DNA of 64,000 bases from an uncultured Acidimicrobiales bacterium (GTDB lineage: Bacteria; Actinomycetota; Acidimicrobiia; Acidimicrobiales; VFJN01): contig CAVZUI010000002.1 of NCBI GenBank assembly GCA_963778415.1, forward strand, positions 585,663 through 649,662, read 5' to 3'. The translations under genes were made by a program, and so were the position numbers. Position 1 is the first letter of the stretch; every line of letters begins with the position of its first letter. The notes under the pieces were generated by a model, which had not been told where the DNA came from, did no database searches, and saw nothing but the letters and a program-made list of their open reading frames with translations. Positions 39,556 to 41,646 of the stretch are shown in pieces.

Positions 39556-40097
39556 GCGCGGCGGGCGGCGTCGCCGACCCGCAACCGGTGCTCGAGATCA
39601 CTGCGGAGCCCTTCGACGCTCCGGTGTCGCAGGCGCTGGTCGGGGAGCTGATGGACGACCTCGACGAGCGCTACGCCGCGGACGGTGCGGGCGACGGCGA
39701 CAGCCACGAGATGATGGCGCAGTTCACGGTCCGCGCCCACCAGGTCACCCCGCCGGTGGGGATCTTCCTGGTGGCGTGGCTCGACGGCGAGCCGGCGGGG
39801 TGCGGGGCGGTGCGCCAGGTGATCGGCGGTCCGGCCGAGGCCGGCGAGATCAAGCGGATGTACACCGTGCAGGCGGCCCGGCGCAGGGGGGTCAGCCGCG
39901 CCCTGCTGGCCCGCCTCGAAGCCGAGGCGGCCGCGCTGGGGTACGCCAGCCTGCAGCTCGAGACCGGGTTGCGCCAGCCCGAGGCCATCGCGCTGTACGA
40001 GGCGGCGGGCTACCACCGCATCCCGTCGTACGGCCAGTACGAGGGCGACGAGCTGTCGGTCTGCTTCGCGAAGGACCTCGCACCCTTGCCTCTCTAG
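39552..40097 (+). CDS. GNAT family N-acetyltransferase
   Basis: GTGA overlap with miaB. Acetyl-CoA motif IKRMYTVQAARRRGVSRALLARLE. Confidence 0.8.
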   Translation: MSAAGGVADPQPVLEITAEPFDAPVSQALVGELMDDLDERYAADGAGDGDSHEMMAQFTVRAHQVTPPVGIFLVAWLDGEPAGCGAVRQVIGGPAEAGEIKRMYTVQAARRRGVSRALLARLEAEAAALGYASLQLETGLRQPEAIALYEAAGYHRIPSYGQYEGDELSVCFAKDLAPLPL

Positions 40098-40163
40098 AGC
40101 GTTCACTCTAGAGTGCCCGCTCTAGAGTGATCGCTCTACGTGCGGTCGCTCTACGTGTGGTCG
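40092..40163. repeat. Five tandem 14-15 bp units; the first three are centred on CTCTAGAG palindromes
   Basis: Units start at 40092, 40106, 40120, 40134 and 40149: CTCTAGAGCGTTCA / CTCTAGAGTGCCCG / CTCTAGAGTGATCG / CTCTACGTGCGGTCG / CTCTACGTGTGGTCG. CACTCTAGAGTG (40104-40115) is a perfect 12-bp palindrome. TAGAGT doubles as a -10-like hexamer. Confidence 0.8.
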
Positions 40164-40186
40164 CCGTCGAGCCGAGGAGCGCACCC

Positions 40187-41077
40187 ATGCCCGCCATCGA
40201 GCTGTCCGCCGGCACGATCGACTACCTCGACACCGGGGGCGACGGGCCCGTCGTGGTCCCGGTGCACGGCGTGATGATGGACGCCACGGTCTGGCGGGCG
40301 GTCGTCGCAGACCTGCGCACCGACCACCGCTGCATCGTCCCGACCCTGCCGCTCGGCGCGCATCGCCGGCCGATGCGGCCCGGAGCCGACCTGTCGATGA
40401 ACGGCCAGGCCGAGCTGCTCGCCGAGCTCATCGAGCGCCTCGACCTCGACGACCTGACACTGGTGGTCAACGACTGGGGCGGCCCGCTCGTCACCGCGGT
40501 GCGCCATGCCGACCTCATCGACCGCCTTGTCGTCACGCCGTGCGAGGCGTTCGACAACATGCCCCCGGGGCTTCCCGGCCGGTTCGCCGAGATCGCAGGG
40601 CGGATGCCGGGCGGCATCTTCCTCGCCGCCCAGGCGCTGCGGGTGCCGGCGCTGCGCCGCCTGCCGACGACCTTCGGGCCCATGGCCGCCTCCCCGATCC
40701 CGGGCGACCTCGCGGCCGGGTGGATCGTGGCAGCCCGCCACCAGCGGGCCGTGCGGCACGACCTCGAGACCTACATCCGCTCCACCGAGCGCGACGTGCT
40801 CGAGGCCATCGTCGACGACCTGGCCGCGCTCGACATCCCGACTCTCGTCGCCTGGACCACCGACGGGCGGGTCATGCCCGCCGAGCACGGGCCGCGCCTC
40901 GCCGAGCTGTTGCCCCACGGGCACTACGCGGAGATCCCCGGCGGTCGCGTCCTCGTCCAGCTCGACCAGCCCGGCCCCGTCGCCGGCATGATCCGCGCCT
41001 TCATCGCCGACCATCCCCTGGCGTCTCCCCCGAAGCCGTGCCCCGCCGTCGGCGCCAAGGTCGAGCACCGGCCGTGA
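40187..41077 (+). CDS. Alpha/beta hydrolase
   Basis: GAGGAG RBS then MPAIELSAGTIDYLDTGG..VVPVHG, and nucleophile region VVNDWGG. GTGA overlap with the following TetR. Confidence 0.8.
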   Translation: MPAIELSAGTIDYLDTGGDGPVVVPVHGVMMDATVWRAVVADLRTDHRCIVPTLPLGAHRRPMRPGADLSMNGQAELLAELIERLDLDDLTLVVNDWGGPLVTAVRHADLIDRLVVTPCEAFDNMPPGLPGRFAEIAGRMPGGIFLAAQALRVPALRRLPTTFGPMAASPIPGDLAAGWIVAARHQRAVRHDLETYIRSTERDVLEAIVDDLAALDIPTLVAWTTDGRVMPAEHGPRLAELLPHGHYAEIPGGRVLVQLDQPGPVAGMIRAFIADHPLASPPKPCPAVGAKVEHRP

Positions 41078-41646
41078 CCGAGACCCGCGATCGCATCGTC
41101 GACGCGGCCGTCGACCTGTTCCGTGTCCACGGCTACACCGGCACGGCCATGAAGCAGGTCGTCGCCGCGGCCGACGCGCCGTTCGGTTCGGTGTACCACC
41201 ACTTCCGCGGCGGCAAGCAGGAGCTGGCGGCGGCGGCCATCGAGCGGGCCGGCGTCGTCTACCGCGACCTGGTGCTCGGGATACTGGACGCCGAGGACGA
41301 CGTGGTGACCGGGACGCGCGCGGTCTTCGACGCGGCCGCGGCGGTCCTCGACGCCACCGACTATGCCGACGTGTGCCCTGTCGCCACGGTCGCCCTCGAG
41401 GTGGCGAGCACCAGCGAGCCGCTGCGGGCCGCCTGTGACACCGTGTTCGCCGACTGGATCGACACGCTGGCGGGGCGCCTCGAGCAGGGCGGTGCGCCGC
41501 CCGCGGCGGCACGGTCGGCCGCCATCGCCTTCATCTCGCTGCTCGAGGGTGGGTTCCTGCTGTGCCGGACGGCCCGGACCCCCGAGGCGATGCGGGCCAA
41601 CGGTGACGTCGCGGTGGCGGTCGTGGCCGGGGCCGTCGACCGCTGA
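41074..41646 (+). CDS. TetR family transcriptional regulator
   Basis: HTH RDRIVDAAVDLFRVHGYTGTAMKQVVAAADAPFGSVYHHF. Confidence 0.85.
   Translation: MTETRDRIVDAAVDLFRVHGYTGTAMKQVVAAADAPFGSVYHHFRGGKQELAAAAIERAGVVYRDLVLGILDAEDDVVTGTRAVFDAAAAVLDATDYADVCPVATVALEVASTSEPLRAACDTVFADWIDTLAGRLEQGGAPPAAARSAAIAFISLLEGGFLLCRTARTPEAMRANGDVAVAVVAGAVDR

Follow-up and report, generated by a model that had tools for sequence, protein, structure and literature searches.

In the TetR-family regulators QacR, CgmR, SlmA and CprB, two dimers bind overlapping footprints on different faces of the DNA helix, at 130–145 degrees to one another and without touching (PMC4150764; PMC3241653), and EthR loads cooperatively on a 55-bp operator (PMC3326297). 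In Bacillus subtilis, the PqdoI promoter carries the boxes TAGAACGGTCTA and TAGACTGGTCTA, with two operators at PqdoI and one at PqdoR (PMC8481877, supplementary table 1). The locus described here lies in a stretch of 64,000 nucleotides (the window) from an uncultured Acidimicrobiales bacterium (GenBank assembly GCA_963778415.1, contig CAVZUI010000002.1, positions 585,663 to 649,662 of the forward strand), in which a short tandem array at window positions 40092–40163 precedes an alpha/beta-hydrolase gene and a TetR-family gene (41074–41646). It is highly likely that the array is the operator region of this TetR protein, which would autoregulate the hydrolase-TetR operon through up to three putative operators, designated O1, O2 and O3.

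The closest characterised relative of the predicted regulator is QdoR (YxaF)/LmrA of B. subtilis. The LmrA/YxaF boxes of B. subtilis QdoR (YxaF) and LmrA were reportedly described by Hirooka et al. in 2007. The best match of the TetR protein in PDB is B. subtilis YxaF (1SGM, E=8e-24), all PDB matches being TetR-family proteins; PF21993 is common to both proteins, and both sets of sites have TAGA and TCTA arms. QdoR represses an adjacent enzyme gene and itself; the target promoter carries two operators, and the promoter of the regulator gene a single one. However, the B. subtilis boxes are separate and of the form TAGA-N4-TCTA, whereas the window has overlapping sites with N8 and a GATC core; the target is a quercetin dioxygenase (an efflux pump in the case of LmrA) rather than an alpha/beta hydrolase; and protein identity is low. 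A TAGA-N4-TCTA element with the QdoR geometry inside TAGATAGATCGCTCTA was considered and rejected, as relatives do not conserve the inner TAGA but have variants of it (TTGA, GTGA and GCGA). By analogy, the system in the window would work like QdoR without its box geometry.

QacR (at IR1), CgmR, SlmA and CprB, regulators of the dimer-of-dimers type, resemble the proposed arrangement in that a composite palindrome accommodates more than one dimer, and the 30-bp TAGAG-N6-CTCTAGAG-N6-CTCTA of orthologues looks like a long inverted repeat of this type. In those regulators, however, two dimers are interleaved on one site of 22–28 bp, whereas the palindromes in the window are complete 16-bp sites that stand alone in many relatives, the centres of adjacent dimers would be separated by 14 bp, and relatives show spacings from 14 to 28 bp. 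In Mycobacterium tuberculosis, several dimers of EthR, likewise a TetR-family protein, bind cooperatively to an extended 55-bp operator of repeated units before the target gene, but EthR does so as an octamer in the divergent ethA-ethR region, while nothing in the window points to cooperativity or to more than three sites. Tn10 TetR also autoregulates through duplicated palindromic operators over the promoter(s) (tetO1 and tetO2, 15 bp in Tn10). Its operators are separate and serve divergent promoters, whereas the window has three end-sharing sites and one co-directional candidate promoter.

The array and its putative recognition unit

The array includes five repeat units that start at 40092, 40106, 40120, 40134 and 40149 and have the sequences CTCTAGAGCGTTCA, CTCTAGAGTGCCCG, CTCTAGAGTGATCG, CTCTACGTGCGGTCG and CTCTACGTGTGGTCG, respectively. 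Tandem Repeats Finder reported two arrays, 40092–40138 with period 14 and 40131–40164 with period 15, and the five starts given in a preliminary description of this DNA are correct. CACTCTAGAGTG is located at 40104–40115. The host genome is a 4.79-Mb draft with 73.4% GC, and the window is part of a 938-kb chromosomal contig. TCTAGA occurs 15 times in the genome, against ~200 copies expected from base composition, and three of the 15 are in the array; the same holds for three of the five genomic copies of CTCTAGAG and three of the four exact matches to TAGA-N8-TCTA. CTAG occurs 615 times against ~11,400 expected. Array units were not found elsewhere in the genome at ≤1 mismatch, and searches allowing 1–2 mismatches gave nothing comparable outside the locus. 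Since TCTAGA, CTCTAGAG and CTAG are rare genome-wide, yet TCTAGA and CTCTAGAG are concentrated here, and the units are not dispersed, the array is a real and local feature that is improbable by chance. The earlier statement that TCTAGA is avoided and that three copies are not fortuitous is therefore borne out. The same description had called for a genome search for other clusters, with a generic dispersed repeat as the contrary outcome, and a dispersed intergenic repeat, resembling repetitive extragenic palindromic (REP) or miniature inverted-repeat transposable (MITE) elements, was rejected given the uniqueness of the units and of TAGA-N8-TCTA to this locus to the extent stated above.

Comparison with relatives indicates that neither the direct repeat of 14 bp nor the CTCTAGAG palindrome put forward previously is the functional unit, but a palindrome of 16 bp, TAGAG-N6-CTCTA, whose core, GATC, is ancestral. 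The single sites of distant relatives have TAGA and TCTA arms around GATC and lack any TCTAGA, and a TCTAGA-centred palindrome was rejected as the recognition unit on these grounds. CTCTAGAG is a junction in which the right arm CTCTA of one site and the left arm TAGAG of the next overlap by TA. Neighbouring sites among O1–O3 share this self-complementary terminal TA (or CTAG), and the overlap sets the period at 14 bp and gives rise to the CTCTAGAG junctions. The recognition element may be 18 bp in length, C-TAGA...TCTA-G.

A position weight matrix derived from 18 distant single sites, none of them from the genus of the window (training range 21–35 bits), was used to scan all 16-mers of the 4.79-Mb genome. 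O3 (40123–40138; TAGAGTGATCGCTCTA), the canonical and strongest site, ranked first with 29.4 bits, within the training range, and its exact 16-mer also precedes orthologues and paralogues elsewhere, in genomes as well as metagenomes. O1 (40095–40110; TAGAGCGTTCACTCTA) ranked second with 22.3 bits and is conserved in G023, the nearest species, and in L078, an independent Joint Genome Institute metagenome contig with hydrolase and TetR proteins 98% identical to those of the window. O2 (40109–40124; TAGAGTGCCCGCTCTA), the weakest site and one without the GATC core, ranked fourth with 15.2 bits. No site outside the array exceeded 17 bits. The palindromes have no strand; O1–O3 lie 49–92 nt upstream of the operon's first gene.

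In units 4–5, no 16-mer starting after O3 scored above 0 bits. Of the five units counted in the preliminary description, three are operator-like (O1–O3), whereas units 4 and 5 are degenerate. The first five bases of unit 4 (40134–40148, + strand) are the right arm of O3 and its sole operator sequence, and the rest is a variable spacer, which reads CGTGC in the window, CGTAC in L078 and CCTGC in G023 in the alignment. The variable bases point to weak constraint. Unit 5 (40149–40163, + strand) is a 15-bp tandem duplication private to the assembly that adds one orphan CTCTA half-site. When aligned with the window, L078 and G023 both have a clean 15-column gap, with a single CTCTAC... unit in place of the two in the window. 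Indel errors of long-read assemblies typically involve 1 nt, and the two copies differ by one base; the duplication is thus probably genuine. Unit 5 would have arisen recently, when slippage duplicated 15 bp and so added a half-site, and neither unit 4 nor unit 5 would serve as an operator.

Conservation of the sites and linkage to the TetR gene

The loci collected for comparison were hydrolase loci, orthologous and paralogous, from 60 related genomes, 21 loci of TetR homologues from a species-representative collection, and 51 metagenome loci holding TCTAGAGYGATCGCTCTA, a pattern that required TC before the site and so favours the 14-bp class. Twelve of 20 distant loci, with TetR proteins of 45–62% identity from other genera, classes and phyla (Acidimicrobiia, Solirubrobacterales/Thermoleophilia and Dormibacterota), have exact TAGA-N8-TCTA. 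In each of the twelve there is exactly one site, 30–90 bp upstream of the TetR start, and most of the other eight have variants with 1–2 mismatches in the same place. The consensus of the distant sites is TAGA(T/G)(A/T/C)GATCG(C/T)TCTA, in which the GATC centre is invariant, and the usual flanks, C and G, would extend it to 18 bp.

Within the genus, all seven orthologous GNAT-hydrolase loci in whole genomes have one strong site (26–33 bits), and six of them also have the TetR gene. The strong site is accompanied by 0, 1 or 2 weaker sites (1–2 in most), and the 14-bp register is kept throughout. Only the lineage of the window itself (the window, G023 and L078) has as many as three sites that reach 12 bits. 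The array is thus conserved in relatives with the same operon, and the absence from close relatives that would have spoken against a regulatory role, according to the preliminary description, was not seen.

The order in the genus is GNAT, sites, hydrolase, TetR (L001–L004, L006, L007 and L064). The sites lie between divergent TetR and hydrolase genes in L011, L035, L038, L054, L060, L080, L086, L097 and L101; the TetR gene precedes the hydrolase gene in L041; and some loci have a TetR gene with no hydrolase match in the fetched DNA. Whatever the gene order, the motif is upstream of TetR homologues in >40 loci across phyla. Its association with the TetR subfamily is exclusive, and the sites are unique genome-wide. 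This co-occurrence through changes of gene order supports the earlier proposal that the array regulates the hydrolase-TetR operon. The 14-bp phase, stressed in the same proposal, is not obligatory. In loci with two or more sites, start-to-start distances are 14 bp at 16 junctions in 13 loci (a count inflated by the TC-biased metagenome pattern), while six loci have sites 21–24 bp apart, one locus has them at 28 bp, and other relatives have a single site. As the spacing varies among relatives, the helical phase is not fixed in the family.

Paralogues of 35–39% identity have a different motif, TAGACCGATCGTCATA, present twice. Same-genus TetR paralogues of 35–36% identity at L052 (1442–1478) and L048 (2069–2105) have the doubled motif TAGACCGATCGTCATA / TAGACCGGTCGTCATA at 21-bp spacing, which shows operator divergence within the subfamily. 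At L005 (G016:C7:265507-269346), the order GNAT, operators, hydrolase is kept, and the nearest TetR gene (L046, 44% identity) is on another contig with a similar site, TGTATCGATCGCTCTA, upstream; this may be an orphaned operator served by a paralogue. Upstream of the hydrolase gene at L008 (G026:C213), a divergent TetR-like frame by a double operator seems to be frameshifted or truncated (MDEQVLTRGSRWRWRRYAATGSTSSS*), either through an indel in the draft assembly or because the regulator gene is decaying. Matches in low-GC metagenomes (L055, L058, L077, L079, L087, L089–L091, L104 and others) have no TetR or hydrolase neighbour. They were treated as chance, because the search pattern contains GCGATCGC, presumably the cyanobacterial HIP1 palindrome.

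Candidate promoter and genes of the operon

Given a looser promoter pattern, TTGnnn-16/17-TAnnnT, a pattern scan placed a candidate -35 element, TTGCCT (40086–40091, + strand), 17 nt upstream of TAGAGT (40109–40114), the left arm of O2, and TAGAGT is probably the -10 element. In addition to TTGCCT-17-TAGAGT in the window, promoter-like patterns were TTGCGT-17-TAGAGT in G023, TTGACG-16-TAGAGT in L003 and TTGAGC-17-TAGAGT in both L004 and L005. The -10 hexamer is the left arm of an operator in every one of these, and TTGnnn-16/17-TAGAGT with TAGAGT as an operator arm was found in five of seven orthologues. TAGAGT had previously been suggested as a -10 element together with TTCACT 16 nt upstream. 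The choice of TAGAGT is supported, but TTCACT (40102–40107) lies 15 nt from the TAGAGT at 40123, and TTGCCT-17-TAGAGT is the better combination. Transcription would start near 40121, with O1 over the promoter spacer, O2 from the -10 element to about +3, and O3 from about +2 to +17. Together, O1–O3 would span TTGCCT-17-TAGAGT from about -27 to +17.

In L023, L027 and L035–L039, a TAnnnT hexamer (TAGAGT, TAGACT, TACACT or TAAGCT) follows the single operator by 5 nt, ~5–25 nt upstream of the TetR starts. The hexamer in single-operator relatives is only 7–12 nt before the TetR start codon, and this short distance suggests leaderless or very short-leader TetR transcripts.

The first gene after the array, for an alpha/beta hydrolase (40187–41077, + strand; PF00561, E=4e-10), is the proposed regulated target. 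Its ATG (40187) is 23 nt past the end of the array and 7 nt after a Shine-Dalgarno sequence, GAGGAG (40174–40179, + strand). A search of NCBIfam with the hydrolase gave haloalkane-dehalogenase and BchO-like matches below threshold only. Homologues of the hydrolase occur next to the TetR gene in more than one arrangement. The TetR-family gene (41074–41646, + strand) encodes PF00440 (E=1.8e-10) and an LmrA/YxaF-like C-terminal domain, PF21993 (E=4.9e-27, 94.6 bits). Its GTG start overlaps the hydrolase stop codon by 4 nt (GTGA), and hence both genes would form one operon. Members of the TetR subfamily hardly differ in the recognition helix, APFGSVYHHF.

Upstream of the array is a gene for a GNAT acetyltransferase (39588–40097, + strand; Pfam PF00583, E=1.8e-13), for which the GTG start at 39588 is provisional. 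This gene is the conserved upstream neighbour in all orthologous loci, and tblastn found the GNAT-hydrolase order in L001–L007, L064 and L099. Its last codons hold the candidate -35 element, and its stop codon TAG (40095–40097), inside the first CTCTAGAG, is the first three bases of O1. In congeners, 60–110 bp separate the GNAT stop codon from the first operator. The space between GNAT and the promoter has collapsed in the lineage of the window (40086–40097), where GNAT is 2–3 codons longer than in congeners. A strict sigma-70 and terminator scan found no terminator in the GNAT-hydrolase gap, and read-through transcripts from GNAT would therefore carry the array. The neighbourhood also includes miaB (MiaB-type radical-SAM) upstream, in addition to GNAT, and genes for a PIG-L deacetylase and an Rv2632c-like protein near the hydrolase and TetR genes.

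The same genome has a true dispersed repeat that looks quite unlike the array, a perfect hairpin of ~48 bp with the form GATTTCCCCGCGAGATCGGTCGC-TCCA-GCGACCGATCTCGCGGGGAAATC. At least 13 copies are present in the genome (G000), at C1:109436, C1:119360, C2:367694, C3:27040, C3:99592, C5:212791, C5:252474, C5:415984, C6:243090, C6:348871, C7:176044, C10:594869 and C10:708981. All are intergenic, most just past stop codons, and they give weak matrix matches (11.3 bits). This repeat looks like a REP-like or terminator-like element.

Proposed repression and alternative readings

The locus has the components of a TetR autoregulatory module, namely a protein with a helix-turn-helix and a ligand domain, 16-bp palindromes on a candidate promoter, and co-occurrence of the motif with homologues of the protein. 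O3 would be the high-affinity canonical site, with O1 and O2 as weaker auxiliary sites. Repressor bound at O3, aided by O1 and O2, would exclude RNA polymerase from the hydrolase-TetR promoter, and a small-molecule ligand, probably related to the substrate of the hydrolase, would release it. More than one repressor dimer probably binds the array. Several observations weigh against autoregulation of this kind. Neighbouring sites overlap by 2–4 bp, with inner half-sites only ~3 bp apart, and adjacent sites may for this reason not be occupied simultaneously, though O1 and O3, 28 bp apart, could certainly be filled together. O1 and O2 might bind weakly or not at all, because they are without the otherwise invariant GATC core. 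No promoter was detected here with the strict sigma-70 consensus. Finally, the hydrolase gene of G016 keeps its operators with no TetR gene downstream, and these may be open to use by a paralogue or some other protein.

A more elaborate complex, in line with the multi-dimer binding raised in the preliminary description, would have one TetR dimer on each of O1, O2 and O3 simultaneously; the three would be turned by ~120 degrees from one to the next and cooperate via DNA distortion or direct contacts. Such a complex is possible but on balance doubtful. A 14-bp step is about one third of a turn, near the 130–145 degrees between dimers in QacR, CgmR, SlmA and CprB (PMC4150764), 14 bp is the commonest of the two-site spacings, and cooperative binding to a 55-bp operator is known for EthR (PMC3326297). 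Against this, relatives with the same operator and recognition helix have sites at 21, 22, 23, 24 or 28 bp, or one site; this variable spacing implies that no particular helical phase is required and argues against an obligatory phased complex. In addition, O2 is weak (15 bits), and the ~3 bp between inner half-sites is tighter than the ~5–6 bp estimated here for QacR-type complexes. A related proposal adds evolution to geometry: the copy number of the operator would be changing rapidly by in-register slippage of 14–15 bp, with the CTAG junction completing palindromes, to give a tunable, cooperative three-dimer spiral with ~120-degree steps. Relatives do have one, two or three full sites, and the assembly of the window has a private half-site, but this combined proposal is improbable. 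The possibility that the sites are used mainly by another regulator, a paralogous TetR or an unrelated protein, and not by the linked TetR, draws on G016, which keeps TAGAGTGATCGCTCTAGAGCG... before the hydrolase without a TetR gene downstream and has the 44% paralogue with TGTATCGATCGCTCTA elsewhere. This is very improbable, as the motif is linked to the TetR subfamily in >40 loci across phyla, no other TetR locus in the genome of the window has it, and the next matrix matches are ≤17 bits.

A function in RNA was also considered, with a hairpin in the 3' end of GNAT or in the 5' leader of the hydrolase transcript acting as a stabilising stem, attenuator or roadblock. The segment 40092–40195 folds at -52.2 kcal/mol (z = -5.0 against shuffled sequences), and no terminator separates GNAT from the hydrolase gene. 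The strong fold is, however, due to the palindromic content, as any palindrome array folds well. The sequence itself (TAGA, GATC and TCTA) is conserved and not just the pairing, and the 5-bp stem of single-site relatives is negligible as RNA. There is no U-tract, and Rfam gave sub-threshold microRNA noise only, with nothing above the gathering score. There is accordingly only a slim chance that the hairpin is the functional form. It is scarcely credible, finally, that the array is a functionless slippage repeat, akin to a variable-number tandem repeat, or that it belongs to the iterons or replication origins. Unit 5, confined to this assembly, does have precisely the character of a slippage product, and close relatives differ freely in the spacer bases of units 4–5, but for units 1–3 a functionless repeat is contradicted by their conservation across species and their match to a cross-phylum motif. 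The iteron-like site suggested in the preliminary description is likewise not supported, since the array is not dispersed, its palindromic units travel with the TetR gene, and the 938-kb contig is chromosomal with no replication gene among the neighbours.

Autoregulation by the linked TetR protein thus remains the favoured interpretation, and the array is, judged by sequence comparison, an ordinary genetic switch in enlarged form, i.e. an expanded, end-sharing array of a conventional, newly defined TetR operator plus a private duplication. The current understanding of TetR regulation is unchanged by these findings. They assign TAGA(G/T)-N-GATC-G-N-TCTA as operator consensus to a TetR subfamily of LmrA/YxaF-like type that had not been characterised and whose genes pair with alpha/beta-hydrolase genes in uncultured Acidimicrobiia, Thermoleophilia and Dormibacterota of soil, and they provide an example of a single palindromic site multiplying into an end-sharing array. 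If the three-dimer spiral were true, its abutting, end-sharing geometry, unlike the interleaved QacR type, would be one not described for TetR regulators. The operator-repressor pair could be an orthogonal part for high-GC hosts once the ligand is known, and the natural variants, with one, two or three sites at 14, 21–24 or 28 bp, form a set in which the influence of the number and spacing of operators on repression could be studied.

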